From: an uncultured Bacteroidia bacterium
Lineage (GTDB): Bacteria > Bacteroidota > Bacteroidia > Bacteroidales > ML635J-15
Direction of reading: 5' to 3'
NCBI GenBank assembly: GCA_902800045.1
Contig: CADCCZ010000002.1
Location: forward strand, 332,131 to 396,130
DNA: 64,000 nt
The notes under the pieces: model-generated
What the model was told of the DNA's origin: nothing
What the model saw: only the letters and a program-made list of their open reading frames with translations
Database searches by the model: none
Translations under genes and position numbers: made by a program
Part shown: one piece after another, positions 1-34,730 of the stretch
Position numbering within the stretch: the stretch's first letter is position 1
How the letters are laid out: each line of letters opens with the position of its first letter

Positions 1-372
1 TTAACAATAACTTAAATGCATTTTGATTAATTTTTAATTCAAGTTGATAACTATACGATTTTGATAATGTCCCCTTTGAAAAAAAGCTGCAAAAAAGGCA
101 AAAAAATCGCAGAAAATGTTTGGTCGGAGAGAAAGATTTGAGTACTTTTATGGGCTGCAAAAATGATGCAGGAGATTGAGTTTTGAATTTTGGGATTTGT
201 TCCCGTAAATAAAAGAAACACAGAGACTTATCGTTAGTGTTTAGGATGATGTCAATGATGTTTTGGTTTGAAAATTTTTTTGAAAAATTATTTTTTTAAG
301 AAGTTTTCACGATCTCGTGCCGTCTTGCAACAAATTTATATTGTTTAACGAAAAATAAAAGGATACGGTCTA

Positions 373-1800: not shown

Positions 1801-1821
1801 ATCTAAGTTAATAACAAAAAC

Positions 1822-1842
1822 GGGGGCTTGCCCCCTTTTTTT
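1822..1842 (+). terminator. Rho-independent terminator after dnaA
   Basis: GGGGGcttgCCCCC hairpin followed by TTTTTTT, directly before the ATG at 1843. Confidence 0.7.
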
Positions 1843-2715: not shown

Positions 2716-2775
2716 GCAGCGAGTTACACCTTTTTTTTCACCGCCCTACATGCTTTTAGCATGCAAATGTGAATG

Positions 2776-3264
2776 TTATTTCATCCGCAAATAGCAGTCC
2801 TTGAAATCCTTGAACCGCTCCATCCAGTGGCGTTCTCGTTCTCGTGTAAACTCGTCGCGCTCGATGGTGGAGTAGTCGTCGAACTGATGCAGAATCTGGA
2901 AATTGCCGTCGTCGTGATGCTGTGCGGCAGTGAGTTCGGCAAGCGGTGAATCGGGCTGCTGACCTATGTGGTGTAGTTCGTACGGGTCGCCATTCTCGTC
3001 GTGAGGTGGGTAGCCTTCGCCCATAAGGTCGGCATTGCACCAGTCCCAGTATTCGGGATGCTTGTGTCCGTACCAGTTGCGGCAGTTGTAGGCCTCGCCG
3101 ACGATTGTCGGATTAAGCAAGGCGGCCTTGCCGTTGACGCGACCTTCCTTAAGTCCTGCCGAAATATAAACATTTGCTTCGTCCATGTCGCGGATGTAGT
3201 CAACTATTGCCGACGACCAGCTGGTTCGAAGCTTTAGTGTCATTTTTTCTAAGGTTGATAACAT
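2776..3264 (-). CDS. Stand-alone HNH/EndoVII-fold nuclease, LHH-type toxin-like domain
   Basis: The C-terminal half contains PYELHHIGQ...LAELTAAQHH...GNFQILH, resembling the LHH clade of HNH/EndoVII nucleases from polymorphic toxin systems. Possible ATG starts are 3264 or 3243. The TTG-extended ORF to 3378 runs through a tandem repeat and is unlikely to be coding. Confidence 0.5.
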   Translation of the reverse strand: MLSTLEKMTLKLRTSWSSAIVDYIRDMDEANVYISAGLKEGRVNGKAALLNPTIVGEAYNCRNWYGHKHPEYWDWCNADLMGEGYPPHDENGDPYELHHIGQQPDSPLAELTAAQHHDDGNFQILHQFDDYSTIERDEFTRERERHWMERFKDFKDCYLRMK

Positions 3265-3290
3265 ATCTAAGTGTGATTTAATATTATTTG

Positions 3291-3350
3291 TGGTTGTTTG
3301 AAGTTGTTTGAAGTTGTTTGAGGTTGTTTCGGATTGTTTGAGGTTGTTAG
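3291..3350. repeat. About six tandem copies of a 10-bp unit GTTGTTTGAR, plus one inverted copy at 3371-3385
   Basis: Read directly: ggttgtttga agttgtttga agttgtttga ggttgtttcg gattgtttga ggttgttaga. The inverted copy cacctcaaacaacc lies 20 bp further on. The array sits between the DUF1232 stop (3421) and the nuclease start. Confidence 0.85.
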
Positions 3351-3420
3351 ACCATTTCAAACTTATAAACCACCTCAAACAACCATAAACTTTGAATTAT
3401 TGAAATTATAACCAATAGAT

Positions 3421-3729
3421 TTATGCAAACAAATTTGCAATTCCGACCACCACAAGTGCAATAATTGCGATAATTAAAATTCCAAGCACTATCAGAACCC
3501 ATTTGATGCCCTTGACAATCTTTGCAAGGTGCTCGTTGGACTCTTTGAGGTACGACTGGATAAGATTTAAGCCGCCCGTTACTGTAATCAGTATATCGTC
3601 AACCCATCCTGCAACGGGAATGACATCGGGCAAAATATCAACAGGCGATATGGCATACAATACAGCGATTACGCCCCAAATCCACGCACCAACGTGCGAT
3701 ACTTCTCTTTTTTCTAAATCTTCTGACAT
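3421..3729 (-). CDS. DUF1232 (YkvA-like) small membrane protein, copy 1
   Basis: DUF1232 signature YAISPVDILPDVIPVAGWVDDILI plus a C-terminal TM helix. The ATG at 3729 lies 2 bp after the stop of the upstream zinc-ribbon ORF. Confidence 0.8.
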   Translation of the reverse strand: MSEDLEKREVSHVGAWIWGVIAVLYAISPVDILPDVIPVAGWVDDILITVTGGLNLIQSYLKESNEHLAKIVKGIKWVLIVLGILIIAIIALVVVGIANLFA

Positions 3730-3731
3730 AT

Positions 3732-3938
3732 CTATTTCCTTTCTTCCATTTGTTTCCAAATATCTTCGTAAGTTGACTTGCTCAGGAACGACATTAATCC
3801 CCACGGCATAGTCCTTATGCTCTGGCAGTGTGGACAAGGCTGTGGAACCGAAAGCACAGTGGCGTTCAGTTCAATATCGTCTGCGCGAAATTTTTCGCCG
3901 CATTCGGTACATTTGAATATTCTTTTTCCTCTAATCAT
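3732..3938 (-). CDS. Small zinc-ribbon protein (CxxC...CxxC)
   Basis: 68 aa with KCTECGEKF and PCPHCQS cysteine pairs. Tightly coupled to the downstream DUF1232 gene. Confidence 0.55.
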   Translation of the reverse strand: MIRGKRIFKCTECGEKFRADDIELNATVLSVPQPCPHCQSIRTMPWGLMSFLSKSTYEDIWKQMEERK

Positions 3939-3963
3939 AATTCGTGCGTTTTTAAATTCATTA

Positions 3964-3998
3964 CAAAAATATCACTTCAAATTGCCAAAACTTGGCAA
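3964..3998 (-). promoter_or_regulatory. Bacteroides-type promoter with palindromic operator TTGCCA-N5-TGGCAA
   Basis: On the minus strand, TAttTTTG (-7 box, 3964-3971) lies 10 nt downstream of the palindrome ttgccaaaacttggcaa (3982-3998). The same layout is seen at 5881-5915. Confidence 0.5.
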
Positions 3999-4090
3999 TG
4001 GAGAAAATAGTTTCAGCAAATTTCCAAGACTATATGATAGCGTGGCAACAACTCTGTTTTATATTTGCAACCGCCATTACAGTAACGACA

Positions 4091-5395
4091 TTACATATCC
4101 TCAAGCGAAAGTCCCACGAACTCAATATTCCAATTGCGGTGCTTGGCGACTATGTCAATAGCCTTGTCTTTCAGTGTATTAAGGTTTATTCGTTTTGCTT
4201 GTCGCTTACATTCGGCCACGACCAAATGCTTGTCAACTTCGTTAACTGCAATCATATCTATTTCATTTCCGCCACCCTTCCAATAGTTGATAATTATGTT
4301 ATAGCAGCCCTTTTCGGCATATAGCTGATGAAAATAACGTTCAAGCACAAATCCCGAAAATGTATCATAGTCGGCAAACACCTTGTCCTGCACATATTCA
4401 AGATTACCAATCTCAATGGCGCTACGATACTTATGGACAAATCTAAACCAAAATGTCAGAAAGTTATCGCGAATAAAATATTTCACACTGTGGGTGTTTG
4501 GCGACTGCATATAGGCTCTGTGCCGATTCAACAGGTTGTAGTTCTTTTCTAGTTTGTCAAGGTAACCGCCTGGCTCAATTCCCGTAACATTCTTGATGTT
4601 GCCACGTTCCGTATTTCCATCTGCAATAGCCTGAAGTATTGAAAAATAATTGGAATACTCCTTGCCAAATTCATCGCGAAGCATTTCGTAACCTTCGGTG
4701 ATGAAATACGACCCGAACGAAAAAACCGAACGAATCATATCGTCTTTTGTAAAAGCATTGTCCATAACCAATTGCTCAACATACTTTGCAACACCACCTG
4801 TGAGCATATAAAGCGTAAGAAGGTCATCGGAATTATAGTTTGGGTTTCCATCGGCAAGTATCTCTTTCAAGGTAGATATCTTGAAAGGCTTCAAATTGAT
4901 TCGACTGGTTGCCCTGCCATATAGAGGTTCCTTGGAATCGTCGAAAATCTTTGTCATCATCGAGTAAACCGAACCGCAAAGCACAAGATTCAGCTTGCTG
5001 TCGTCCTTATTGGCATCCCAAATATTCTGGATGTCGGAAAAAAGGGCAGGATTGGCATAGTTTAGATTCTGAAATTCGTCGAGCACCAATGTGAAGTTAA
5101 TGCGCTTGGATAGGTTCATTATCGCATTGAAAAGTCGCGAAAACGATGAAAAATCTCCAATATCCTCATTCAGTACATAGCGTACATTCTCGCAAAGTTC
5201 GGCACAAAGCATGGCTTCGCTCTTGCGTGTTACAAAGAAGTAAACGAAAGGAATCTCGGCAAACGAATGCCTAATCAAAGATGTCTTTCCAATCCGCCGT
5301 CTTCCAGTTACTACTGTCATCTGTGCGTATTTTGCCGACTTCTTTTCAACACCTTTCAGAGTCTCAGTCTCTATCTCTCTGTCATAAAACTTCAT
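4091..5395 (-). CDS. AAA ATPase of the archaeal-ATPase/DUF234 family
   Basis: FYDRE start, Walker A GRRRIGKTSL, Walker B LVLDEFQ, LYGR, and DNFLTFWFRF. The C-terminal nuclease-like DUF234 region has EIDMIAV...AECK. Confidence 0.85.
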   Translation of the reverse strand: MKFYDREIETETLKGVEKKSAKYAQMTVVTGRRRIGKTSLIRHSFAEIPFVYFFVTRKSEAMLCAELCENVRYVLNEDIGDFSSFSRLFNAIMNLSKRINFTLVLDEFQNLNYANPALFSDIQNIWDANKDDSKLNLVLCGSVYSMMTKIFDDSKEPLYGRATSRINLKPFKISTLKEILADGNPNYNSDDLLTLYMLTGGVAKYVEQLVMDNAFTKDDMIRSVFSFGSYFITEGYEMLRDEFGKEYSNYFSILQAIADGNTERGNIKNVTGIEPGGYLDKLEKNYNLLNRHRAYMQSPNTHSVKYFIRDNFLTFWFRFVHKYRSAIEIGNLEYVQDKVFADYDTFSGFVLERYFHQLYAEKGCYNIIINYWKGGGNEIDMIAVNEVDKHLVVAECKRQAKRINLNTLKDKAIDIVAKHRNWNIEFVGLSLEDM

Positions 5396-5535
5396 AATTT
5401 ACAATATTTTACAATTGCAACCGTTGTTACTGTAACAGCTGTTGCAATTTGATTGACAATGCAAAAATATTATTTATTATTGAAATGTGGTATAGAAAAA
5501 ATCAAAAAATGAAAGTGAAGGATATGCAACTATTT

Positions 5536-5853
5536 TTAAAATAACTTTTCACACACTACCACAACAGCAAGCGCAATGACAACCAATGGTGCAAATCCTA
5601 TCACTATCCACTTGATGCGCTTAACCATCTTTGCAAGTGCTTCGTTTTTCGGCATCAGGTACGACTGGACAAGGTTGATGATGCTTATTGCCACTACAAG
5701 TATATCGTCCACCCAGCCGTATGGGGTAATGACATCTGGAATGAAATCCAGCGGTGCAATTGAGTACAATACGGCTATCGCAATCCAAAGCCACGCGCCT
5801 GCGTGTGGCGAAACGCTCTTTCCTCTCGATAAAATTTCTGTTTTGTTGGTCAT
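5536..5853 (-). CDS. DUF1232 (YkvA-like) small membrane protein, copy 2
   Basis: YSIAPLDFIPDVITPYGWVDDILV plus a C-terminal TM helix. By eye about half the residues are identical to copy 1. ATG at 5853. Confidence 0.8.
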   Translation of the reverse strand: MTNKTEILSRGKSVSPHAGAWLWIAIAVLYSIAPLDFIPDVITPYGWVDDILVVAISIINLVQSYLMPKNEALAKMVKRIKWIVIGFAPLVVIALAVVVVCEKLF

Positions 5854-5880
5854 ATCTTTGTTGTTTTTAGTTTGAGAGGA

Positions 5881-5915
5881 CAAAGGTATGGGGGAAGGTT
5901 GCCAAAAGGTGGCAA
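5881..5915 (-). promoter_or_regulatory. Bacteroides-type promoter with palindromic operator TTGCCA-N5-TGGCAA
   Basis: On the minus strand, TAccTTTG (5881-5888) lies 10 nt downstream of the palindrome ttgccaaaaggtggcaa (5899-5915). Spacing and sequence parallel 3964-3998. Confidence 0.5.
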
Positions 5916-5933
5916 TGCTTGGGTGAGATTTAG

Positions 5934-5964
5934 AAAAAAGCCACCGCAAATAATATGCGATGGC
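5934..5964 (-). terminator. Rho-independent terminator after the dynamin operon
   Basis: Minus strand reads GCCATCGC-tattattt-GCGGTGGC followed by TTTTTT, 9 bp after the stop at 5973. Confidence 0.6.
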
Positions 5965-5972
5965 TATAGAAA

Positions 5973-8003
5973 TTACAATAGAATCTTATTGATTTCGGTA
6001 GTTTGCGTTTCTATTGTTTCAATATTAGATTTTAACGAAACAAGTTTCTGATTAATCTCTCCGATTCTCTTTTCCTTGTCAGTTTTCTTACCCTTACATT
6101 CTTTTATTTGTTCTTTCAAAGGATTGATAAGACCATCAATGAATTCTTCTTTAACAAAGTTAATAATCTTGTCTTTTTTGTCTAATATCCTGTCAAGTAA
6201 TGGATCTGGATCAAAAGATGTACTAATATCAGATATGTTGCGTTTCACATCATTTACAATAGAACCATGAGAGAGAGCATTAATTATTGGTCTGAATTCC
6301 CAGAAAACACTTTTAAATATAATTTTAATTATTCCATCATCATCTAAAGCAGTTATGTCTTCGTCAAAAAGATTCTTGCTGTCAATATCCATGTCTAGTT
6401 TTGTTGTAACATTCTTAATGAATGATTCCGAATCGAAGTCTTCAATATTATTGTCAAAAATAATCTGAACATCATCAAAGAATGCTGATATTGTTGATTT
6501 CAGCTTTCGTTCGGTATTTTGACTAAGGTCCAATAAGGTTCTTGGTAATCGCCTTTTTTTCAGGTAGTCTAGTTCATTGTCCAATTTAGTGCTTAGATTT
6601 TCTGATCTTTCAAACCTACCCCAAGCGTCCACAATACTATTCATTTTTTGGCATGAAGCATCTACAATATCTTCTAAATCGTTTTTACCTTTTCTGATAG
6701 TTGCCTTAAAGTCAGATTCCAAATCATCACCAAGACTATTTATCTTTCTGTTCAGACGCCTCTCCGCCTTTTCAAGTTTTTCTTCTCTTTCTTCTAGTTC
6801 GGAATCAGGCAGATTCAAAAGTTTCAATTCGTTTTCAAGCAAATCCTTTTCCTTTATAAATTCCGTTTTTTTGCTTTGACCCGCAGCTTTTATTGCATTT
6901 AATGGTTTTGCTATCAATATCGCATTTTTCTCCTTATCAATCATATCCTGTATTGCACGAATAAGGTTGTCAATGTGGCTTCTTTGCCTCATTTCCGATT
7001 GCGATGATATTTCAAAATTACCGCAATGTCTTTTCCAGATGTCACTATAAATGATGTCGGAAGAAATTTTACTCATTGGTATTTCGGAAAGAAGTGCCAT
7101 CTCTGCCGACAATGTGATTGGAGTGGTTTCCTTAAGTATGCTATTGATAGTATCGTCACCCAATTCTTGACTGGCCTTTCTGATTTCTCGCGAAACATAG
7201 TTTATAATATCGTCTTCCGTATCTCCATTATTATATGGAATGTCGTATTTATTAATACCTATGAGAACTTTTCCTATTCCGCATGATTTTACATTCTTGA
7301 ATAGAATATCCCTGTCCGTAGAATCAAATGGACGTCCTGCATACAACATAAGCAGAACGACATCCGCCTTCTTCAAAAAATCCTTCGTGCGCTCTTCACG
7401 AGAGACAATAGGGTCGTTAAACCCTGGAGTATCAACAATCTCTACGCCCTTGAGATATTCCTTCGGATAATATATTGTAACGGATTTTGTTATCGAAACA
7501 TACTTTCCTTCTGCACCAACATATTCTACAAGATTTTCAAAGTTATCTTCTTGTGTTTTGCCAAGATATTTTTCAACATTCAGTCCCGATGATTTCTCAA
7601 CAAGTTCTTTAGCTGCTTTTATCTTTGATTTTTCCGAATCGCTTAAATTTTCCTCATTAGGATTACGGCTGGCTGTCATTTTCTGCTCGTTCCACTCATT
7701 GCTGTTGTAAAACTCGGCAACTATTCTCTTGCGTTCCCCGTATGTGATTACCGACAACGCCGCTGTCATTGGCGTTGTTGCTGCAGGAAGAACATCATCC
7801 TCGAACACAAATGAATTCAAGAAAGTTGATTTTCCACATTTCATCTGACCAATAACTCCGATACATAAAGTGTCGTTGTCAAGTTTTTCTATTATCTCAT
7901 TTTTGCGTTTTTCGTCAATCCATCCATATTTGTTCGCTTTTTCTGCAAGCGACTTCAGATTTTCTTTTTTTTGCCTTATTTCTTCAAAAAAATTCTGTGC
8001 CAT
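5973..8003 (-). CDS. Bacterial dynamin-like GTPase (DLP-3), soluble with a long helical stalk
   Basis: G1 GQMKCGKST, G3 DTPGFND and G4 NKYD, followed by about 400 aa of helical, charged sequence. Confidence 0.85.
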   Translation of the reverse strand: MAQNFFEEIRQKKENLKSLAEKANKYGWIDEKRKNEIIEKLDNDTLCIGVIGQMKCGKSTFLNSFVFEDDVLPAATTPMTAALSVITYGERKRIVAEFYNSNEWNEQKMTASRNPNEENLSDSEKSKIKAAKELVEKSSGLNVEKYLGKTQEDNFENLVEYVGAEGKYVSITKSVTIYYPKEYLKGVEIVDTPGFNDPIVSREERTKDFLKKADVVLLMLYAGRPFDSTDRDILFKNVKSCGIGKVLIGINKYDIPYNNGDTEDDIINYVSREIRKASQELGDDTINSILKETTPITLSAEMALLSEIPMSKISSDIIYSDIWKRHCGNFEISSQSEMRQRSHIDNLIRAIQDMIDKEKNAILIAKPLNAIKAAGQSKKTEFIKEKDLLENELKLLNLPDSELEEREEKLEKAERRLNRKINSLGDDLESDFKATIRKGKNDLEDIVDASCQKMNSIVDAWGRFERSENLSTKLDNELDYLKKRRLPRTLLDLSQNTERKLKSTISAFFDDVQIIFDNNIEDFDSESFIKNVTTKLDMDIDSKNLFDEDITALDDDGIIKIIFKSVFWEFRPIINALSHGSIVNDVKRNISDISTSFDPDPLLDRILDKKDKIINFVKEEFIDGLINPLKEQIKECKGKKTDKEKRIGEINQKLVSLKSNIETIETQTTEINKILL

Positions 8004-8024
8004 AATATTTGTGTGTTGCTTAAA

Positions 8025-9854
8025 TTACTTATTTAATTTGTTGATTAGTCCTATCAGTTTGCTCTGATGCAATTCCATCTCCCTTAATATTGCCTTGCAA
8101 TCCGACAAATCTTCATGCGTTTTTTGCAACCTTTTAGCAGCTTCAACATTCTCACTGAATATTTTTTCGACTTGCGGAACGTCATCATTTGATATTGATT
8201 CTAGAACGTTTACTAATCTATCACCTTCAGATTTAGACATTTTATATTTATCTTCTACAAACCAACGTGTTTTCAAATGGGAACAAAACTCTCTTATTGT
8301 ATCTTGGCATTTGTTAGACATTGACTTAAGCCCCGCATAGAAAGAATTTTCTTTCCATTCACAATTCTTTCGTGCGTTTGAATGTTCAGAATTTTTCCTA
8401 TTAACATTTTCCCTTAAAATAGACAGACAATTAGGAATAAGATTATTCACAAGACTATTTACATAGTTTTCAGAATCAGCACTTCTCCTAATAGACTTTA
8501 CAACATTCATTATTGTGTCAATCTGTGCTGTTTTTGAGAATCGAATGTACTGCTTCGGCACAACACCCTCCCTTGCAAATGTCTGCTTTATTAGTTGTTC
8601 AACCCTTTCTACCTCTTTTTCTGCTTTGGTGTCGGTCTTGTTTATTACAACATACAGAGGTTTTTTTAGTTTTTCCTTTATCAAGGCAAGTGAACTTCTG
8701 TTTATCGTACCTGTGTTTACATCGACAACCCAGAATAAGGCATCACACTCGTTTATTACACCAAGAGTCCTTTCACTGTCCTCCTTGTCGTTGGAGTTAA
8801 ATCCAGGGGTATCAAGAATGCTCATACCGTTCAAATTAGGATTCTTGTAGGTCATTACAAAATACTGTATAAGCGAAGATATTCCTTTTACTTGATTTAG
8901 AACTTCCTTGTTCACCCTACTGAAAGTTTCCTTTGAAATTGTCTTTAGGATATTATCCGGTGAATACAAGCAATAAGTTGTTGTTATTCCACCTGATATA
9001 TAGGTAGGAATAGCGGTTGTCGCCTCTGTGCTCACAGGTAGCAACTGGGCACTTGCATCATTCTGCGAAAGAATTCTATTCACTATTGATGTTTTTCCTG
9101 CCGAAAATTCACCGACAAAGGCAATCTTTACTTTGCCCTGTACCCAATGCTTGCTGGCAATTTCTGCCCATTCGTTAAGCTGTGGACCAAAATAATCGTT
9201 CCATTTTGCCGAACCTTCTCTTATATCATTGAAGTTCTTGGAAACGAATGGCTCAAGGTCTTCTTCGATGTAGTCCTTTATTTCCCTAATAGCCTTTATG
9301 CGTTCGGAATAAGACTTATCATCGGCACGTTTTGCAGTCATAACTTCCTGAACAAATGAAAGAGATTGTTTCTTTAGTGATATTTCCTCTCTTGCCTCAT
9401 TTAATGTGTCCTTTGTTTCTTGAAGTTCCGATGAAATCTGCTTGTTCTTATTCTCCAGTTGCCCTATTATTTCATCTTTTTCGGCTTCAATTTTCTTTGT
9501 TTTTTTCTTCTGGTCGTCACATTCATCCTCAAGGTCTTCAATTTCATTTTCAAGTTTCTTGATTTTTTCCTTCGCCTTGGAGATTTCGTCTTTAAGCCTA
9601 TCTTCCTCATCGGATGTAATTGTTACATTACCGCCCTTTTCTACTGTTTTCAGTTTTTCCTTCAACTCGGAATATGCCTTTTCTTTTTCGGATAATGCTT
9701 GTTTTAACGATTCGATCTCATTCTTGTGACTTGATTTGTCAATATTGTTTTGCTGCGTATTTTTCCTTGACATTAGTTTTACCACAACAAATACAATTAT
9801 TCCGCCAAGGATGGCAGCCCCTATTGTCAATAAAATTATGTTAGTGATATTCAT
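8025..9854 (-). CDS. Membrane-anchored coiled-coil / dynamin-like GTPase (DLP-2)
   Basis: N-terminal TM helix (ILLTIGAAILGGIIVFVVV), about 150 aa of E/K-rich heptad coiled coil, then G1 GEFSAGKTS, G3 DTPGFNS and G4 NKTD. Confidence 0.85.
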   Translation of the reverse strand: MNITNIILLTIGAAILGGIIVFVVVKLMSRKNTQQNNIDKSSHKNEIESLKQALSEKEKAYSELKEKLKTVEKGGNVTITSDEEDRLKDEISKAKEKIKKLENEIEDLEDECDDQKKKTKKIEAEKDEIIGQLENKNKQISSELQETKDTLNEAREEISLKKQSLSFVQEVMTAKRADDKSYSERIKAIREIKDYIEEDLEPFVSKNFNDIREGSAKWNDYFGPQLNEWAEIASKHWVQGKVKIAFVGEFSAGKTSIVNRILSQNDASAQLLPVSTEATTAIPTYISGGITTTYCLYSPDNILKTISKETFSRVNKEVLNQVKGISSLIQYFVMTYKNPNLNGMSILDTPGFNSNDKEDSERTLGVINECDALFWVVDVNTGTINRSSLALIKEKLKKPLYVVINKTDTKAEKEVERVEQLIKQTFAREGVVPKQYIRFSKTAQIDTIMNVVKSIRRSADSENYVNSLVNNLIPNCLSILRENVNRKNSEHSNARKNCEWKENSFYAGLKSMSNKCQDTIREFCSHLKTRWFVEDKYKMSKSEGDRLVNVLESISNDDVPQVEKIFSENVEAAKRLQKTHEDLSDCKAILREMELHQSKLIGLINKLNK

Positions 9855-9858
9855 TTAC

Positions 9859-10230
9859 TTACTTTTTTAATGATTCAACTTCATTTTCCAACGATTTTAC
9901 AGCGAGACTATATTCTTCTACTTTGAGTTTCAACTCAGAGTTTTCTGCAGACAGAGCCTTTATCTTCCTTTTTGCCGCATCCATTTCATCTTCAAAGGAA
10001 TCATTGTCTTCATCCCTTTCTTTTAACTGGCGGTAAAGTTTTTTGTTCTCGGCAAGCAAATCTTCAACCTGTCGTTCAAAATCTCTATTTCTGTTGCGAA
10101 ACTTTTCGTTTTCCCTATAAAGTTCGTCGATTTCTGTTCTTTTTTCGTTAGACGGCTGCTGTCCAGTAAATTTACCGATTAAATACCCAACCGACAATCC
10201 TAATATTGCAGTTATTATAATTCCTACCAT
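9859..10230 (-). CDS. Single-pass membrane coiled-coil protein
   Basis: 123 aa. N-terminal TM helix (IIITAILGLSVGYLIG) followed by a charged heptad-rich sequence. Resembles the N-terminal module of DLP-2. Confidence 0.7.
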   Translation of the reverse strand: MVGIIITAILGLSVGYLIGKFTGQQPSNEKRTEIDELYRENEKFRNRNRDFERQVEDLLAENKKLYRQLKERDEDNDSFEDEMDAAKRKIKALSAENSELKLKVEEYSLAVKSLENEVESLKK

Positions 10231-10245
10231 AATTTTTCTCCTTAT

Positions 10246-12003: not shown

Positions 12004-12012
12004 GATATTATT

Positions 12013-12450
12013 TTAATTGTATTTTATCGTTTTAAGAAACTCTTTTAGATTATTGAGTACATCATTCCTATTAAGTATTTTTATCAAATCCATATTATCT
12101 ATTTCCAAAGAATCTTCCATGTCATATAGTAAAGTATTTATCCATTTAACAAAATAATTTATTTTTCTCCTTTTATTACATTTGGTATATGGTATTAGAG
12201 AGTTGCATAAAAATATTAGGGATTTTAATTGATTTTTTATTTTCAAAGTACGTTTACTTCCAAAACTAATAGCACATGATTTATCGTACTCTTCTATGCA
12301 TTGAATAATTGTTTCAGTAATGTTGCCTATTTTAGATATAATAATATGCTTATTTGCTGCTTTGAAATTAATTAGACCAGAAATTCCAATGATAGCACAT
12401 ATTGACGCAATAATTGAAATTATAGAACTAATAATGTTTAATGATTCCAT
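12013..12450 (-). CDS. Hypothetical small membrane protein, first gene of the dynamin operon
   Basis: ATG at 12450 and an N-terminal TM helix (IISSIISIIASICAIIGISGL). Very AT-rich. Its stop lies 9 bp from the DLP-1 start. Confidence 0.5.
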   Translation of the reverse strand: MESLNIISSIISIIASICAIIGISGLINFKAANKHIIISKIGNITETIIQCIEEYDKSCAISFGSKRTLKIKNQLKSLIFLCNSLIPYTKCNKRRKINYFVKWINTLLYDMEDSLEIDNMDLIKILNRNDVLNNLKEFLKTIKYN

Positions 12451-12524
12451 GATATTAAATTTTTTGTCATTATTTCTTTTATTCCTTAAAAAAAATTGAG
12501 CGTGTTCCAACTATCCTTCATTTC

Positions 12525-12809
12525 GGTTGGAAAGGCTCTGGAAAACCCGTAATCGCAAAAAGAAGAAAGCAGTCCACGCCCATGATGGGTGCGTACGGTT
12601 TTCGAACTACCTGCGCGATTACTTGTAAAAAGCTTCCAGACTTCTTCCAATCGCTAAGCATAACGAAACGTACTCCTAACGTTGCTACAAAGATATAGAA
12701 ATATTTACGATTTACGAAGTACGATTTATGATTTTTTTTGAGACCAATCCAGATGTCAAACAGTCTAACAGAAGACTTGTCGGGCTGCAAGCCTGTTAGC
12801 CTGTTAGCC
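12525..12809. repeat. Mosaic intergenic repeat block, left of the AbiE cassette
   Basis: ggttggaaaggctctggaaa (12525-12544) is the exact reverse complement of 14389-14408. cctgttagcctgttagcc (12792-12809) is a near reverse complement of 14498-14514. cgctaagcataacg also has an inverted partner near 14426. Confidence 0.8.
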
Positions 12810-12835
12810 ACTCAAAAAAACTTGTCAATTCAAAA

Positions 12836-12843
12836 TATATTTG
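12836..12843 (+). promoter_or_regulatory. Candidate -7 box TAtaTTTG upstream of abiEi
   Basis: Matches the Bacteroides TAnnTTTG consensus, 50 bp before the ATG at 12893. Confidence 0.35.
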
Positions 12844-12892
12844 TAATTTTGTGAGCCTATAATAAAAATAAATTTTATTTCTAGCTTTAAAA

Positions 12893-13453
12893 ATGACTGT
12901 AATAAATTCCATAATGGCAAGCCCACGCACTGTTTTTACGATGCAGTCGCTGCTTATGCTGCTAGATGGTTCGCAAACAGCCGACCTGCCGGCAAAGATG
13001 CACTATTATGTCAAGCAAGGTGTTTTGCTAAATCCTCGGCGTGGAATCTATGCAAAATCGGGATACGACCTTCGCGAAATGGCATGCGCGGTATTCCAAC
13101 CATCATACATATCAATGGAATATGTATTGAGCCGTAGCGGTGTAACATTCCAGTATGTTGACGAAGTAACTTCCATTAGCTACCAGAACCGTAGCATCGA
13201 AATAGACGGGAAAGACTATTCGTATCGGCGCATTAACCCTATGCTGTGGACAAATATGGCAGGAATAATCCAAAACGACAATATTGCAATCGCTACTCCA
13301 GAACGAGCATTCCTCGATATGGTTTATCTGAGCGCCGGCAACTGTTTTTTCGACAATCTTCGTGTGCTCGACAGAAAACTAATCAAGGAAATATTGCCCA
13401 CATATAATTCTGCAACATTGAACAAACGAGTAAAACAATTGATAAATATTTGA
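12893..13453 (+). CDS. AbiEi-like antitoxin (type IV TA / abortive infection)
   Basis: 186 aa. Its stop overlaps the start of an AbiEii-family gene, and size and position are typical of AbiEi/DUF6088 partners. The call rests mainly on context. Confidence 0.55.
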   Translation: MTVINSIMASPRTVFTMQSLLMLLDGSQTADLPAKMHYYVKQGVLLNPRRGIYAKSGYDLREMACAVFQPSYISMEYVLSRSGVTFQYVDEVTSISYQNRSIEIDGKDYSYRRINPMLWTNMAGIIQNDNIAIATPERAFLDMVYLSAGNCFFDNLRVLDRKLIKEILPTYNSATLNKRVKQLINI

Positions 13454-14334
13454 AAGTCATGGATATTAATAAACATAGGTACTATATGACGCAGATTCTG
13501 CTTGCAGTTTTTCAGGAAAGTGAATTGTGCAAGCTACTTGCCTTCAAGGGCGGAACATCGCTATTGCTGTTCCACAACTTGACACGTTTCTCTACCGACT
13601 TGGATTTCAACCTGCTGGACAAATCGCAGATGGAAAATGTGTATCGTCGGATGCGAAATTTGCTACTTAGGTTTGGAAGTATCGAAGATGAAGCCGTAAA
13701 GTTTTATGGTGCCATACTTGTGCTAAGTTACGGTAAAGGCGAACGGATGCTAAAGATAGAAATAAGCACTCGCCAATACGACGACCATTATGAGATAAAA
13801 AACCTTATGGGTACAGATATCCGCTTAATGACAATAAATGATATGTTTGCACATAAACTTTGTGCGCTTGGCGAACGTATCACGCCACGCGACGTTTACG
13901 ACACTTGGTTTTTCCTTCACAACAGAACAGAAATAAATCCCAATATCGTGCAGTTGCGTACAGAAATGCCCATCAGTGAATATGCAAAACTTTGTGCTGC
14001 AAAAGTTTCAGAAACCAGTCCCAAGGCATTGATGCAAGGTCTTGGCGAAGTTTTGCTGGATGGTTCTTCAAAGAAATTTGTAAAATCTCAACTAATAACA
14101 GAAACCGCCTCGTTGCTTGAGCTGTTTTCGCAATATCCGCTTGTTGCAAACCAGACGAATACCCCAAGGATGCAACTGTTAATTGACAATCCTAACTTAA
14201 CACAACTATTCGAGAATAACAATGTGGATTTGAGCACCATATCAGAACAACAACTGCAAAATCTCATAAATCAAGGTGCATCGCTAAAAGTTTATTCTCG
14301 CAATGGAGAAGAGGTGGATATATCATTGGGATAA
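13450..14334 (+). CDS. Nucleotidyltransferase AbiEii/AbiGii toxin family protein
   Basis: Signature FKGGTSLLLFHNLTRFSTDLDFNL (GGT...RxSxDxDF) and about 290 aa. The start is TTG 13450 (overlapping the upstream stop) or ATG 13459. Confidence 0.8.
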   Translation: MKVMDINKHRYYMTQILLAVFQESELCKLLAFKGGTSLLLFHNLTRFSTDLDFNLLDKSQMENVYRRMRNLLLRFGSIEDEAVKFYGAILVLSYGKGERMLKIEISTRQYDDHYEIKNLMGTDIRLMTINDMFAHKLCALGERITPRDVYDTWFFLHNRTEINPNIVQLRTEMPISEYAKLCAAKVSETSPKALMQGLGEVLLDGSSKKFVKSQLITETASLLELFSQYPLVANQTNTPRMQLLIDNPNLTQLFENNNVDLSTISEQQLQNLINQGASLKVYSRNGEEVDISLG

Positions 14335-14388
14335 TAGTTTTCAAAAACAGCCCACGCCCATACCTTACATACTGCAACCACTGGCAAA

Positions 14389-14790
14389 TTTCCAGAGCCT
14401 TTCCAACCAGCAGATATTTCAAACGGTATGCTTAGCGCGGACTGCCGTTGCCACTGTGGCAACTGAGAAAAACAAATGTCCGAACAGCAGTCTCACAGGC
14501 TGACAGGCTAACAGTCGAACAGCCAAGCCTACCTAGACAGGTCTTCTTTAGCCATCAAATCAGCGTAGCCATTGTAAAGACGTGCCATGGCGCGTCTCAA
14601 CAGAACGGCAAAGCCCTCAACGAAGTTAAACGGCTTTAGCCATTGAAACGGGCATAGCCCATCAAACGTGAAACTTGAAACGGCGCAGCCATTGAAATCC
14701 AGAAACAGCGTTAGCCATCAAACTTTCAAACGCCGTAGGCATTGAAACAGCGCAGCGAGAACGGCGAAGCCCCTACGCTGTTACCTTTTT
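14389..14790. repeat. Mosaic intergenic repeat block, including about 7 degenerate TAGCCATYRAA units
   Basis: Inverted partners of 12525-12809. Motifs tagccatcaaa / tagccattgaaa recur every 18-30 bp across 14541-14760. The 28-mer aacggcaaagccctcaacgaagttaaac is the reverse complement (27/28) of 55199-55226. Confidence 0.8.
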
Positions 14791-14931
14791 CGTCTTTTTG
14801 CTACTGCTTTCTTGCAATTCCTTGCCTCGCTTGTAATCTTCGTGGGCTTTCTTGGCAAGCGTTCCGCCTGCAACCACCGCTGCTATTGCTGCCAGTGCCT
14901 TTAGACCGGCTTTAATGAAATCAGAACTCAT
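14773..14931 (-). CDS. Possible 52-aa small membrane protein
   Basis: Hand translation gives MSSDFIKAGLKALAAIAAVVAGGTLAKKAHEDYKRGKELQESSSKKTKKVTA. It is below the ORF-track cutoff, its 3' end runs into the repeat block, and it lies 19 bp downstream of the 14951 gene. Confidence 0.25.
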   Translation of the reverse strand: MSSDFIKAGLKALAAIAAVVAGGTLAKKAHEDYKRGKELQESSSKKTKKVTA

Positions 14932-14950
14932 ATTCAAATGTTTTTAATCG

Positions 14951-15307
14951 TTATTGTTTTATTTTCTCTCCCTTGCTGTTGTAAACAGTAGTATATCCGT
15001 TCTTCTTCACGACGAAGGTGTCGCCCGAAACGGAAACAATATCGCCCACCGTAGTGGAAATCGATTTATATTTGTGCCCTTGCATATCATACAGGTCGTA
15101 GAATCCGTTCTTTACCACGATGAAGAACTTGCTGCCATGTCCTACCAAAGTTCCAACATAGTCGCCAACGGCTTTAACTTCCACATTTTTTTCGTTGTAG
15201 ATGCGGTAGAAGTGGTTTTTATTCTCAATGTGTGAGATACTTTGCGAGAATGCTGTGGCACATATTGCCACGAACATCAGTAATACTAATAACTTTTTCA
15301 TTTTCAA
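14951..15307 (-). CDS. Secreted hypothetical protein with short beta-type repeats
   Basis: Signal peptide MKMKKLLVLLMFVAICATAFSQ, and repeated VKNGFYDLYDMQGHK / KKNGYTTVYNSKGEK segments. Confidence 0.6.
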   Translation of the reverse strand: MKMKKLLVLLMFVAICATAFSQSISHIENKNHFYRIYNEKNVEVKAVGDYVGTLVGHGSKFFIVVKNGFYDLYDMQGHKYKSISTTVGDIVSVSGDTFVVKKNGYTTVYNSKGEKIKQ

Positions 15308-15336
15308 TTAAGTTTAAATGTTTATACTCTTGTTAT

Positions 15337-15975
15337 TCAATAATTTATCTTTACGGTAATTTCGTGATAAAAGTCACGGCAATAGATGAAATCGGTTATG
15401 GCAAAATTGCTTTTCAGGAATAATTGACTAAACTGGAGGGTCAAGTGCAAATTCTTGGTAAGTTCTTCATCGAGACCTGCGTTCCAATTCTTCGTCCAAA
15501 TATCCGAGTCATGTTTACAACGACTACGCTTGCCTATGATAACGTCGAAACTATCGTATGGACTTACCACCAAACCAGCCACGCAACTATCCCAACCAGC
15601 ATATTGAGAATTCCACAATGCCCACCAAAGTTCATCGCGGTCGCTATCTTGCAGCGGATGCAGTTTAGGGTAGTCTTTACCTAAAAGGCACTTACCGTCG
15701 ACTTCTATGTCTTCGCCAAGGGCTTTGTTGGCTTCGTAAACAATGTGATATTTTTCGTAAGTTATCCGCAATGCCTCAATCAGTGCGTCGTTGTAGGCAA
15801 TTATGTCGGGCAGAATCTCCTCCTGATGCTGAAGCACATAATGGTTGATTATGTTCTTTCGCATTTGCAGCAGGTAGCTAATGTTTTCGGTATCGAAAGA
15901 GGATTCGTGGAATCTGATTATTTCTTTCTCGATTTGTTGCACCGAATAGTCCTGCAAAATTTTTCTTATATTCAT
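15337..15975 (-). CDS. Hypothetical protein (212 aa), no recognisable motif
   Basis: Clean ORF with an ATG start, in a same-strand series with neighbouring small genes. Confidence 0.55.
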   Translation of the reverse strand: MNIRKILQDYSVQQIEKEIIRFHESSFDTENISYLLQMRKNIINHYVLQHQEEILPDIIAYNDALIEALRITYEKYHIVYEANKALGEDIEVDGKCLLGKDYPKLHPLQDSDRDELWWALWNSQYAGWDSCVAGLVVSPYDSFDVIIGKRSRCKHDSDIWTKNWNAGLDEELTKNLHLTLQFSQLFLKSNFAITDFIYCRDFYHEITVKINY

Positions 15976-16010
15976 AACTAATTGTTTTACAAATTTAATA
16001 TTCTCCTACA

Positions 16011-16175
16011 TTGTCATTCCGTAAAGCAGAACGAACCGACTAAGTATCGTGTCGTGTGAGTTCGCTTGTACGGAATCTCCCATTGAAACATTTTCCATTG
16101 GAGATTCCGCATAGTTGAACAATATTATGCTCCACGTTCCGTATCGCATTATTGTTCTAACTTGCGGAATGACAA
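16011..16175. mobile_element. MITE-like 165-bp element with 11-bp terminal inverted repeats
   Basis: ttgtcattccg (16011-16021) pairs with cggaatgacaa (16165-16175). An internal hairpin is formed by cggaatctcc (16071-16080) and ggagattccg (16100-16109). A related gaatgtcattc motif occurs at about 55150. Confidence 0.45.
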
Positions 16176-16363
16176 TCCTTTTTTTCTTTGTCATCGTCGC
16201 AAAACAGGTCAACTATGCCGTCGATAAGGTCCGACACAAAATTGCCTGCTGCCTTGCCAACGGCAACCGCTGGACCTACTCCTTTCTCAAAAGGCTTCAA
16301 TTCTTCGGGAAACTTTCCTTTCGTCAGGTCGTGATTCTCTCTTTTTTCTAAATCCTTTTCCAT
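16157..16363 (-). CDS. Possible small protein (68 aa)
   Basis: ATG ORF whose 3' part overlaps the MITE-like element, so its coding status is uncertain. Confidence 0.3.
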   Translation of the reverse strand: MEKDLEKRENHDLTKGKFPEELKPFEKGVGPAVAVGKAAGNFVSDLIDGIVDLFCDDDKEKKDCHSAS

Positions 16364-16375
16364 AGTAGTCTGTTT

Positions 16376-16504
16376 TTAATCGTCATAGTCAATTCCATCT
16401 TCGTCATATTCTGCTCTAGCGTCCTCGTCCGGAAACATCCAGTCGAGAATTTCATCAGTTGACGGGTCATCGTCGTATGGACCATACTCAAAATCTTTAA
16501 TCAT
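16376..16504 (-). CDS. Possible very acidic 42-aa protein
   Basis: Hand translation gives MIKDFEYGPYDDDPSTDEILDWMFPDEDARAEYDEDGIDYDD. It lies 12 bp upstream of the next ORF. Confidence 0.3.
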   Translation of the reverse strand: MIKDFEYGPYDDDPSTDEILDWMFPDEDARAEYDEDGIDYDD

Positions 16505-16541
16505 AGCATTAGATTTTAAATGGTTATTAATAAGTTAACTA

Positions 16542-17084
16542 TCACCTTGCTATCTTGAATCCTATTCTTTCGTTATCAACCGTCAATGGAAACTCTGCCA
16601 AAAGTGCTGGCATCGACAGTTTCACATAATCTTCTGCTGAATTGTGCATCTCCAAAAAACGCTTGGTTTCCGCCATAAAGTCATTGATATTGCGTACTCG
16701 CGTCTCGTAAGCCATGCTTATCGAGTTAGGCTCGTCGAAGTCAATGAAGAACGACATGCCATATTCCAAGTTAAGGTTATTTGCAATGACGCACATCCCT
16801 TCGCGGTTCACATCGTCGAGGCCTTCAAATTCTTCGACAAGATAAAATCGTAGCCTCAACAGGTTGAGGTCATCCACCGGGTCGATACTATAAATTATAG
16901 GGTTGGTGCCAATCCACATATAGTTGAGTCCCTCCACTTTTTCGGTGCGGTAACCTTCGTCTGCCAATGCCTTGCGTGACTGGCGGTAAATTTTGCCGGT
17001 AGAGACGATTCTTCCCTTCAACGCCATTGCAATCAGGCTTGCAAGCGCACCAATTATCAATATTGCAAATACTATCCGTATCAT
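16542..17084 (-). CDS. Membrane-anchored hypothetical protein (possibly a YbjN-like fold)
   Basis: ATG at 17084 and an N-terminal TM helix (IRIVFAILIIGALASLIAMAL). The soluble domain has no strong motif. Divergent from the WYL regulator gene. Confidence 0.55.
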   Translation of the reverse strand: MIRIVFAILIIGALASLIAMALKGRIVSTGKIYRQSRKALADEGYRTEKVEGLNYMWIGTNPIIYSIDPVDDLNLLRLRFYLVEEFEGLDDVNREGMCVIANNLNLEYGMSFFIDFDEPNSISMAYETRVRNINDFMAETKRFLEMHNSAEDYVKLSMPALLAEFPLTVDNERIGFKIAR

Positions 17085-17259
17085 TGTCCTTTGTTTTTCT
17101 CGAAGCAAAGGTAGGTGGCCAAATTGCCAAAGTTCGGCAGTATAGGATTTTTTTTGTATTTTCGCAGTGCATTAGCGAAAATACCGATTTTACATTATCC
17201 ATTGTTAAATGTCAATTAAAAATCTTTTTACACTGCTTGCTTTTGGCAATGCAGTATTT

Positions 17260-17267
17260 TACCTTTG
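17260..17267 (+). promoter_or_regulatory. Candidate -7 box TAccTTTG for the WYL regulator gene
   Basis: TAnnTTTG consensus, 25 bp before the ATG at 17292. Confidence 0.45.
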
Positions 17268-17291
17268 CGCTGAATTTAAAGAAGAAACGAT

Positions 17292-18203
17292 ATGGCAAGA
17301 AACTTTTTCAATAGATATGTGTGGCTGATTGACACTATACAGCGTTACAAATATATTCAGTTCGACGATTTACAGCGCGAGTGGAACAGAAGCGTATTGA
17401 ACGAAAATGGACAAGAACTGGCACAGCGCACATTCTTCAACCACAAGGATGCGATTGCCGATATGTTTGGCATCGAAATTAAGTACGACAAGGCTCGTGG
17501 CTACTACATTGCCGAAGAAGAACTCAACTTCGAAGGTTTCCGCAACTGGCTGCTCAGTTCGCTGTCTATCAACAACTTATTGCTCGAATGTTCGGATATG
17601 CGCGATAGAATTCTGTTCGATGAAGTGCCTGGCGGACAGCAATATGTAAAGACTGTTGTCGATGCAATGCGAGCAAGCACCGAACTCGAAGTTACCTACC
17701 AGAGATTCCTCGATGATGAGCCGAGGACATTCAACTTGCAGCCATATTGCATAAAATGTTTCAAGCAGAGGTGGTATGTGTTTGGCAAGAATACCTACGA
17801 CAAAAAACTGAAATGCTATGCCTTCGACCGCGTGATGTCGATGCACAGTACCGACAAGAAATTCAAGTTGCCCAAAAGTTTCGATGCAAAGGAATACTTT
17901 GAACCGCTGTATGGCATTGTCGGTGGCGGAGAGAAACCGGAACTAGTAAAAATCAAGGTTATCGACGAGCAACGCGGACACATTCGCACACTTCCTCTGC
18001 ATTCGTCGCAGAAGGAAACCGAAACAAAGGAAGAGTACTCTATTTTCTCGTACTACATGGTTCCCTCCTTCGATTTTTTAATGGAATTGCTCTCGATGGA
18101 AGATATGGTGGAGGTGCTTGCCCCCGAAAAGTTCCGCAAGGAAATAAAACGGCAGATAGATGGGATGTACAGGCTGTATAAACAAGAGAAAAGACGCCCC
18201 TAA
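17292..18203 (+). CDS. WYL domain-containing transcriptional regulator
   Basis: N-terminal wHTH-like region (RYVWLIDTIQRY...), and a WYL core with EVTYQRF...PRTFNLQPYCIKCFKQRWYVFGKN...YAFDRV. Confidence 0.75.
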   Translation: MARNFFNRYVWLIDTIQRYKYIQFDDLQREWNRSVLNENGQELAQRTFFNHKDAIADMFGIEIKYDKARGYYIAEEELNFEGFRNWLLSSLSINNLLLECSDMRDRILFDEVPGGQQYVKTVVDAMRASTELEVTYQRFLDDEPRTFNLQPYCIKCFKQRWYVFGKNTYDKKLKCYAFDRVMSMHSTDKKFKLPKSFDAKEYFEPLYGIVGGGEKPELVKIKVIDEQRGHIRTLPLHSSQKETETKEEYSIFSYYMVPSFDFLMELLSMEDMVEVLAPEKFRKEIKRQIDGMYRLYKQEKRRP

Positions 18204-21115: not shown

Positions 21116-21358
21116 TCGTTATGCCTTTTTGTAAAGAGACTTGGCAAAGGTATAAAAACTTTTTGTAAAGGACATTGGAGAAGGGAAAACAAGCGAATTT
21201 TCTTCTTATTCTTAATAAAAATGAAAAATATATCCATTTTAAACAGCATATAAACATTTTTATGCAACACAATACCATTTTTGTCTAATAACTACCATGT
21301 AAACATTTTCTCTTTTAATTTTTCATTATATTTGAATTCAATTAATATCATATCAAAT

Positions 21359-33734: not shown

Positions 33735-33800
33735 AGATTTATTTTTCACATCGCATTATTTTTTTGCATTTTTATTTTTCAGTGAAGGTTCAAACAAAAA

Positions 33801-33821
33801 AGTCCGCCTTGCGAGCGGACT
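33801..33821 (-). terminator. Rho-independent terminator after atpG
   Basis: Minus strand reads AGTCCGC-tcgcaag-GCGGACT followed by TTTTTTG. Confidence 0.7.
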
Positions 33822-34722: not shown

Positions 34723-34730
34723 AATTTACA

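Follow-up and report, generated by a model that had tools for sequence, protein, structure and literature searches.

A putative modular defence island at the 3′ end of an oxidoreductase gene in an uncultured gut Bacteroidales bacterium

Introduction

The DNA analyzed here, termed the window, is a stretch of 64,000 nucleotides (nt) from an uncultured Bacteroidia bacterium of the order Bacteroidales (assembly GCA_902800045.1, contig CADCCZ010000002.1, positions 332,131–396,130). A 15.5-kb segment beside dnaA, at about window positions 2723–18217, is probably a horizontally acquired island that is located at the 3′ end of an FAD/Fe-S oxidoreductase gene (FADox) and works as a modular anti-phage defence island. 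We infer both its defence function and its mode of mobility. Searches for new immune systems centre on defence islands, and the gut and rumen Bacteroidales are poorly charted.

The original prediction, made from the sequence alone, described a defence-island-like accessory segment between a DMT permease (to 2715) and the oxidoreductase (from 18200). The segment does lie there, and all of the genes that were named are present where they had been placed, as judged by Pfam and PADLOC profiles. Two refinements can be added: the segment has structured ends with exchangeable cargo, and direct repeats taken from the FADox 3′ end mark its limits. Known beforehand were defence islands in general, the AbiE system, WYL regulators and defence by dynamins. 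New are a framed, integrase-less and att-flanked architecture at several loci, a shared palindrome, an operon type with three dynamins, the pairing of DUF234 with DUF1232 genes, and the o212 family.

Insertion at the FADox 3′ end

The window's own genome is designated G000 and those of relatives G002, G008, G011 and G021; L-numbers denote comparison loci or contigs. Contigs for comparison were retrieved via homologs of DynC, o212 and o188, and genes were called from an open reading frame (ORF) listing with Pfam, PADLOC, NCBIfam and PHROGs profiles (Table 1).

A DNA search of 40 relatives located an empty site in the congener G002 (contig G002:C44), where the stop codons of the permease and FADox genes are 8 bp apart. 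The 10-mer TCACCGCCCT is present once in this empty site and twice in the window, and a junction alignment places both window copies exactly where homology to the empty site ends or restarts. These two are the only exact copies across the 64 kb. The 10-mer encodes part of the FADox C terminus (..RAV..). The right copy belongs to the functional gene, and the left one is part of an in-frame terminus of about 25 bp with its own stop codon. The left end of the G021 island likewise displays the final 10 FADox codons and the stop (about 33 bp), and a decayed copy of the terminus is found at the same island end in L042. A 26-nt FADox 3′ sequence has no further copy in the genome beyond the right junction and was not found in L034, L035, L040, L041 and L044.

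Left copies of this pattern are produced by elements that enter a gene at its 3′ end and supply a new terminus. The comparison with the empty site shows that the island is inserted at the FADox 3′ end and that the terminus was duplicated. Flanking direct repeats and a precise empty site are those of an integrative island. An integrase or recombinase of its own was not detected in ORFs of at least 90 amino acids (aa) by the Pfam, NCBIfam, PHROGs and PADLOC scans, nor was a transposase domain, and there is no tRNA in window positions 1–24000. This agrees with the original prediction, which had noted that none of these bounds the segment.

In having direct repeats of a target 3′ end, a displaced terminus on the opposite side, a precise empty site and defence genes as cargo, the island resembles att-flanked integrative islands in gene 3′ ends such as pipolins, which are bimodular defence platforms (PMC11551731). 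Unlike these, it lacks an integrase, PolB and any other mobility gene, and its modules are also found elsewhere without such repeats.

Two other possibilities were examined and set aside. A prophage or integrative and conjugative element remnant found no basis in the PHROGs scan, which gave only a DUF1232-like family of no known function and a match of the DUF234 ATPase to a MuB-like family (E 5e-6). This match is generic AAA+ and was rejected as evidence of transposition. A recombination tract in FADox that would mark co-transfer with the island gave no signal in a five-species alignment, because the gene is uniformly about 95% conserved across these species.

Horizontal acquisition

Comparison with related genomes shows that the island was acquired by horizontal transfer. 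G008, the closest relative sampled, has a core nt identity of about 95% and lacks the island, its permease and FADox genes having other neighbours. G002, with the empty site, has a core nt identity of about 88% to G000. The core sequences of G021 and G011 are only 69–78% identical to those of G000 at the nt level, yet the island modules are 93% (G021) and 95% (G011) identical. At the protein level a DynC ortholog is found in two of 57 genomes of the family, and in a DynC search of genome contigs the G021 contig alone matched. G000 derives from the metagenome of a bovine gut, and incomplete versions of the island are present in many bovine and sheep gut metagenomes. The island is polymorphic in present-day populations, since contigs of another metagenome (run X2) are without the DUF234 gene, position 3999 being joined directly to 5536, and without the 160-bp element described below.

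Presence and content of the segment thus vary among relatives, as in the accessory regions called defence islands. A conserved, origin-proximal core segment that appears odd only through poor annotation is refuted and retains next to no probability. Most of the island outside of the dynamin operon does have an ordinary composition, as core genes would. However, G002 has an empty site and G008 is without the island, the DynC ortholog is restricted to the two genomes mentioned, and the identity patterns of island and core are discordant. Gene content and order are not shared either: G021 lacks AbiE, and in G011 the ends are the same but enclose other cargo and sit at a different locus. A conserved core, named beforehand as the outcome that would overturn the prediction, was not found.

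The GC content of the island is 0.390, that of the genome 0.437 and that of the dynamin operon 0.353. The 5-kb windows of the dynamin operon are in the top 2–2.5% of 1258 genome windows by tetranucleotide distance. The deviation of the island stems almost wholly from this operon, and the other modules are ordinary. The compositional deviation that had been anticipated therefore holds for the dynamin operon and not for the remaining island.

Conserved end modules and exchangeable cargo

Alignment of the comparison loci shows that the island has a conserved module at either end and exchangeable cargo in the middle. End A is the WYL gene with the divergent six-gene orphan operon, and end B is zr68-DUF1232-LHH. 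Both terminal genes (WYL and LHH) are transcribed outward, and the loci cease to be homologous at the WYL stop codon on one side and about 25 bp beyond the LHH stop on the other. With 80–98% aa identity, both end modules turn up again in eight or more further genomes or contigs, at no fewer than four chromosomal loci and around different cargo (the frame with variable cargo was seen in G021, G011, L034, L035, L039, L042, L044, L045 and L046).

In G000 the cargo is AbiE, o165, the dynamins and DUF1232b-DUF234. The G021 cargo is the same minus AbiE, with FADox and threonine aldolase as flanks. L042/L043 have the same flanks as G021 and carry a 131-aa protein, an FRG-domain protein and a 553/661-aa protein. 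L039, also at the FADox locus, has a PIN toxin-antitoxin pair and a DUF234 ATPase of 48% identity. The G011 island is located between tyrS and rplT, and there a radical-SAM/SPASM protein, a 1458-aa TPR-STAND protein and an ATPase_2 protein replace the dynamins. L035 and L044 have WYL with the orphans at a prfB/ATPase_2 locus, and L035 adds dynamins and a DUF1232b ortholog that follows DynC. L034 displays zr68-DUF1232-LHH-DynA-DynB-DynC beside rplT, with a second dynamin pair. All modules are present in L045 between fumC and pfkB, in rearranged order and with two DUF234-DUF1232 pairs.

The end modules may instead be independent accessory genes that are linked merely by the close kinship of the genomes compared, a possibility to which we give some, though clearly the smaller, credence. 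The o188 family has 23 members, all at least 72% identical, and the sample is therefore phylogenetically narrow. In addition, o212 homologs exist without the other orphans, and in the available sequence of L035, L039 and L044 the orphan module has no LHH near it. Independent genes would not readily account for the co-occurrence of the modules at four chromosomal loci in rearranged orders, for the palindrome that both carry and that is otherwise rare in the genome, or for modules that stay 80–98% identical while the cargo between them is replaced.

The modular defence island resembles the defence islands and hotspots of E. coli (PMC10121019) and P. aeruginosa (PMC10250203) in its clustered defence systems, variable occupancy between fixed flanks, empty site in relatives and horizontal acquisition. 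Two recognized systems, the AbiE pair and PDC-S27, lie within a few kb; PADLOC profiles recognize both, and weakly the components of Eleos, in keeping with the defence-island-like segment proposed originally. The differences are that the flanking frame genes are accessory themselves and occur at no fewer than four chromosomal loci, that no integrase is present whereas E. coli islands of unclear mobility typically have an integrase or recombinase, and that the host is a rumen Bacteroidales bacterium.

Some of the cargo in relatives was recorded separately. The G011 cargo (L014 7091–17137, G011:C16) comprises the radical-SAM/SPASM enzyme, a 296-aa protein, the 1458-aa TPR-STAND NTPase and a 532-aa ATPase_2 protein, and from its domains this set looks like a candidate multi-gene defence system. 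In the L042 cargo (13843–16761) the FRG-domain protein is 283 aa long, and the 553/661-aa protein is without a Pfam domain. A MNT-HEPN toxin-antitoxin pair lies immediately beyond the left boundary of the G021 island (L012 4088–4815, G021:C13).

Repeats and the route of spread

The mosaic repeats and the MITE-like element (miniature inverted-repeat transposable element) of the original prediction are real. Repeats at 14600–14770 have dozens of partial copies in the genome. The 160-bp element at 16013–16174, inside the orphan operon, has 23-nt terminal inverted repeats with arms that are 83% complementary. G000 has about 15 near-full copies of it, most congeners have copies as well, and a run X2 contig is without it. 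It is short, non-coding and dispersed, with terminal inverted repeats and presence/absence polymorphism, as is a MITE. A breakpoint at 14332–14343, within the repeat-rich region 14335–14790, is common to G021, G011 and L039.

Repeats of this kind offer another route. The island may have spread with no site-specific step, by homologous or homology-facilitated recombination anchored on FADox together with rearrangements at MITE-like repeats, and the direct repeats would then be by-products of one old unequal crossover. At about 95% identity per alignment column in five species, FADox is a good recombination anchor. The shared breakpoint, the MITE copies at the left junctions of the G021 and G011 islands, the missing integrase and the modules at three other loci without FADox remnants are also compatible with this explanation. 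It is possible but doubtful, as the left copies are displaced 3′ termini that keep the frame and end in stops, which is the signature of target-restoring integrative elements, the empty site is precise, and the repeats of G000 (about 25 bp) and G021 (about 33 bp) are unequal in length.

The WYL regulator, the orphan operon and a shared palindrome

The WYL protein displays WYL and WCX domains (Pfam WYL 4e-10, WCX 2e-6; PADLOC WYL 2.5e-25). No helix-turn-helix match was found by Pfam in residues 1–115, and the protein has no sequence match in PDB. It is 90–99% identical in aa sequence between four separate chromosomal loci. The gene runs divergently to o188-o42-o68b-o212-o118-o54, and these orphans are colinear at 80–98% aa identity in L035, L039, L042, L044, L045 and L046, with the exception of o212 (54–62%).

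A 19-bp palindrome, ATTGCCAA-N3-TTGGCAAT, is located at three island sites, before three transcription units across both end modules. Genome-wide there are five matches with up to two mismatches, against 1.3 expected from shuffles, and three of the five are the island sites. The copy on the o188 side is conserved in seven other loci (L035, L039, L042–L044, L046 and L047), L045 has a variant copy at the same o188 position, and G021 retains the two DUF1232 copies.

WYL regulators co-localize with defence islands and repress them, and BrxR and CapW are WYL repressors beside defence systems that bind inverted repeats and respond to single-stranded DNA or DNA damage (PMC9122601, PMC9122588, PMC11662680). 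Because of the analogy with BrxR and CapW, we infer that the WYL protein may control both end modules via the palindromes. The likeness includes WYL and WCX domains, divergence from the presumed target operon, an intergenic palindrome and the defence-island setting. Unlike BrxR and CapW, which have a winged helix-turn-helix, WYL and WCX, the protein has no N-terminal winged helix-turn-helix detectable by Pfam and no PDB sequence match, and the same palindrome is also found before two distant units 11–13 kb away.

The o212 family comprises 258 hypothetical proteins with no Pfam domain. In unrelated contigs o212 homologs adjoin WYL, RNase T, GmrSD, PLD, Zeta toxin, Fic and PIN genes. The protein is hypervariable (54–62% identity versus 82–98% for its neighbours), and two types often occur in tandem. 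An AlphaFold2 model from a 43-sequence alignment has a pLDDT (predicted local distance difference test) of 89 and a pTM (predicted template modeling score) of 0.88, and Foldseek found no match to it in PDB and BFVD (best E 2.5–3.4, template modeling score below 0.2). The model of o188 (pLDDT 72) displays a transmembrane (TM) helix and a YbjN-like alpha/beta domain, the best match being 6vu7 (probability 0.99, E 0.035); this family has 23 proteins. The o42 protein has 17 Asp/Glu residues among its 42 (40%) and is kept as a 42–47-aa ORF at the same position in L035, L039, L042, L045 and L046. Conceivably it mimics DNA or acts like an antitoxin.

The dynamin operon

The operon (5973–12003, minus strand) encodes DynA, cc123, DynB and DynC. 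All three GTPases have intact G1 (GxxxxGK[ST]), G3 (DTPG) and G4 ([NT]KxD) motifs, and the phosphate-binding loop required of Eleos is therefore present. The Pfam Dynamin_N E-values for the three are 2.5e-22, 3.5e-18 and 8e-19. DynA displays an Ala/Gly-rich hydrophobic paddle at residues 408–470, DynB an N-terminal TM anchor and a coiled coil of about 200 aa, and cc123 an N-terminal TM segment and a coiled coil. Among solved structures DynC is most similar to Cj-DLP1 and Nostoc BDLP.

All three dynamins show weak, partial matches to LeoA/LeoBC (Eleos) profiles with E-values of 1e-11 to 1e-18. The best are LeoA at 6e-18 (profile positions 94–400 of 559) and LeoBC at 4e-12 (positions 11–194 of 601), so that neither profile is covered for the greater part of its length. 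In B. subtilis the two-gene operon Eleos ("Dynamins") gave protection from jumbo phages and needed both P-loops to do so (10.1101/2022.05.11.491447). Bacterial dynamins are usually heterotypic pairs and also act in membrane repair and vesiculation (PMC6104087). The operon is like Eleos and paired dynamin-like proteins (Cj-DLP1/2, BDLP) in its consecutive dynamin GTPases with intact P-loops, its defence-island setting, one soluble LeoA-like partner with the others membrane-binding, the weak profile similarity and the likeness to Cj-DLP1 and BDLP. It differs from Eleos in having three full dynamins and a separate TM coiled-coil protein instead of two genes, and in the N-terminal TM segment and the coiled-coil extension of about 200 aa in DynB. 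On these sequence features it is probably a three-dynamin variant which works like Eleos, and not a member by the two-gene definition.

The DynA-cc-DynB-DynC core has thousands of homologs. The four genes are kept at 40–55% aa identity in Prevotella-type and many Bacteroidales contigs, where they are usually followed by genes for small membrane and Zn-ribbon proteins. The o165 gene was seen only in G000 and G021 among the loci examined. A DED-like (death effector domain) Pfam match of o165 (E 0.004) falls short of the Pfam threshold, is not significant and was not used. Two proteins of 212 and 165 aa at the dynamin operon of L024 are not homologous to o212 and o165, and the equal lengths are coincidental.

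Two further observations concern operons of this type. A 72–77-aa DUF6140 protein recurs beside three-dynamin operons in Prevotella-type contigs and is also found in one defence island that contains o212 (Table 1). L034 has five dynamin-family genes at 222–4074, i.e. a 709- and 577-aa pair with a DLP_helical domain in addition to DynA-DynB-DynC. A DUF445 membrane protein lies between this pair and the zr68-DUF1232-LHH genes that precede DynA.

AbiE and the DUF234 ATPase

AbiEi matches PADLOC PDLC02255 at 3e-73 over residues 2–185 of 186, and AbiEii matches PDLC02324 at 4e-93 (residues 4–232) and Pfam AbiEii at 6e-21. The two genes abut at 13450–13453, and the nucleotidyltransferase motif GGTS...DLD of AbiEii is present. 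The pair is like AbiE type IV toxin-antitoxin systems in that adjacent AbiEi and AbiEii match their profiles over nearly the full length. It differs in that AbiEii has a C-terminal extension of about 60 aa past the profile and that the pair is a cassette nested in a larger island. This cassette (12815–14331) is a clean 1.5-kb insertion relative to G021, and AbiE is flanked by the inverted repeats 12525–12544/14389–14408 and 12783–12809/14498–14524.

The ATPase_2-DUF234 protein belongs to PDC-S27, a PADLOC candidate system: PDLC04985 is matched at 5.2e-46, protein positions 2–425 aligning with positions 5–450 of 484, i.e. near full length. The protein is 98–99% identical in aa sequence in G021 and L045. 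By the naming convention of PADLOC, PDC-S27 is a single-gene candidate. Unlike such a single gene, the gene is here recurrently paired with DUF1232 membrane proteins (in the window, G021 and G011, and twice in L045).

The LHH nuclease

The LHH nuclease is free-standing and has 162 aa counted from its ATG. It displays the catalytic domain of LHH/HNH nucleases with an intact ELHH...ILH motif. An ORF of 200 aa is an artefact of a 10-bp tandem array, GTTGTTTGAR with an inverted copy, in the leader (3286–3390). In G021, L034, L042 and L045 the protein is also of 162 aa, with 78–91% aa identity, and the order zr68-DUF1232-LHH is kept in L034, L042 and L045. A WHH nuclease at the dynamin operon of L024 is not alignable with it.

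The entire protein (an HNH/EndoVII type) aligns with the C-terminal 150 aa or so of mostly longer proteins (937 matches). These relatives are mostly of 200–450 aa with the domain at the C terminus, as in polymorphic toxins. Such an affinity would fit an island or backbone that serves bacterial competition or envelope stress, with an LHH toxin that the membrane-anchored dynamins, DUF1232 and small envelope proteins export, e.g. in vesicles, or with membranes that these proteins repair. A role in vesicles is said to have been proposed once for LeoA. Several island proteins are membrane-anchored or secreted, and four of the six distinct dynamin-operon contexts sampled have no recognizable defence domain in the neighbours; membrane repair and vesiculation are also attributed to bacterial dynamins (PMC6104087). 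A role in competition or envelope stress is nevertheless quite improbable. The LHH protein has no signal peptide, TM segment or trafficking domain, and no gene, so no immunity gene, lies between its stop (2776) and the island edge. Neither the large N-terminal trafficking region nor the downstream immunity gene of a polymorphic toxin is therefore present. AbiE, PDC-S27, WYL and the GmrSD, PLD, Zeta and PIN neighbours of o212 point to defence.

Proposed working of the island

As a defence island, the segment would have entered by recombination within the FADox 3′ sequence of about 10–30 bp. The enzyme may have been a recombinase that acted in trans or has since been lost, or RecA acting on the short repeat. 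Cargo cassettes (AbiE, dynamins and DUF234; elsewhere radical-SAM/STAND, FRG and PIN) would be exchanged through recombination near 14.33 kb, where the junction is rich in repeats. The WYL protein would repress the promoters that bear the palindrome, and a phage or DNA-damage signal would release them, as with BrxR and CapW. Growth arrest by the AbiEii nucleotidyltransferase, the action expected of the DUF234 ATPase family and Eleos-like, GTP-driven membrane remodelling by the dynamins may then act against phage, possibly with LHH cleaving DNA in concert with the DUF1232 membrane proteins.

A number of points count against this reading. Integrase, transposase, relaxase and tRNA are all absent from the island, and the islands of the tyrS/rplT, prfB and fumC loci show no FADox remnant. 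The dynamin operon is the sole compositionally foreign part. Its Eleos matches are weak and partial with three dynamins rather than two, PDC-S27 is only a candidate system, and binding of the palindrome by the WYL protein is a matter of analogy. Most comparison loci are from closely related rumen Bacteroidales, so that the recurrence of the end modules is in part shared descent.

A more far-reaching proposal is that the WYL/orphan operon and zr68-DUF1232-LHH (the Zn-ribbon module) form a WYL-controlled "docking frame", a new integrase-less platform for defence cargo in Bacteroidales. Such a frame would capture and exchange defence cassettes between its halves and would move between chromosomal sites, perhaps in an LHH/HNH homing-like manner, with o212 and o42 as specificity or immunity determinants. 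Taken jointly, these suppositions are speculative and unlikely.

The locus is precisely delimited, naturally polymorphic and cargo-exchanging, and it is usable as bait for candidate systems such as the radical-SAM/STAND, FRG and VWA cargo in relatives. Candidates for testing are the three-dynamin Eleos variant, which is widespread in Prevotella-like bacteria, the putative WYL regulon of six small proteins, one of them without a known fold match, and the pairing of the DUF234 ATPase with DUF1232. How an att-flanked island can move in the absence of any recognizable recombinase is a further question posed by this locus.

Features and other regions of the window

Table 1. Positions of genes, repeats and palindromes (window coordinates unless a comparison locus is given)
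Feature	Position	Strand	Basis or remarks
dnaA	373–1800	+	Pfam
EamA/DMT permease	1828–2715	+	Pfam
Left direct repeat, displaced copy of FADox 3′ terminus	2723–2747		minus-strand reading ..RAVKKKV*; core TCACCGCCCT at 2738–2747
LHH nuclease, island-terminal, transcribed outward	2776–3264 (longer ORF to 3378)	-	Pfam LHH 4e-17
DUF1232 membrane protein, copy a	3421–3729 (longer ORF to 3837)	-	Pfam
zr68, Zn-ribbon ORF	3732–3938	-	weak Zn-ribbon matches
Operator-like palindrome ATTGCCAAAACTTGGCAAT	3981–3999		upstream of zr68
ATPase_2+DUF234 ATPase	4091–5395	-	Pfam, PADLOC PDC-S27
DUF1232 membrane protein, copy b (DUF1232b)	5536–5853 (longer ORF to 5949)	-	Pfam
Palindrome, copy 2	5898–5916		upstream of DUF1232b
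DynC, 676 aa, soluble	5973–8003	-	Pfam Dynamin_N
DynB, 609 aa	8025–9854	-	Pfam Dynamin_N
cc123, 123-aa TM/coiled-coil protein	9859–10230	-	
DynA, 585 aa	10246–12003	-	Pfam Dynamin_N
o165, TM-anchored 165-aa protein directly upstream of DynA	12013–12510	-	
AbiEi	12893–13453	+	PADLOC 3e-73
AbiEii	13450–14334	+	PADLOC 4e-93, Pfam AbiEii
o54, TM peptide	14773–14937	-	
o118, signal peptide	14951–15307	-	
o212	15337–15975	-	no Pfam domain
o68b	16157–16363	-	
o42, acidic	16376–16504	-	
o188, TM segment and YbjN-like domain	16542–17084	-	
Palindrome, copy 3	17123–17141		o188/WYL divergent intergenic region
WYL-WCX regulator, island-terminal	17292–18203	+	Pfam WYL 4e-10, WCX 2e-6
FADox (FAD/Fe-S oxidoreductase)	18200–21115	-	stop overlaps WYL stop
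Right direct repeat core TCACCGCCCT	18208–18217		within functional FADox 3′ end (..LEILNRAVRN*)
DUF6140 protein	L022 5612–5830; L024 7689–7910; L032 5709–5927; L041 12361–12594		

An internally repetitive protein of 1854 aa (window 21281–26845) adjoins FADox and displays 72–82% aa identity among relatives. Its homologs in L042 and L046 have PKD, CUB and Por_Secre_tail domains, the last typical of type IX secretion system (T9SS) cargo. Window positions 33795–39100 are 94–98% identical in all eight congeners tested, versus about 70% for neighbouring genes, and this region is very probably an rRNA operon, judging from its conservation. Further dips in GC content are found at 47000–49000 and 55000–58000 (0.35–0.38 versus 0.44), and the repeat family pointed out in the original prediction also maps to 54990–55450. 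The two regions of low GC content may be additional accessory segments.

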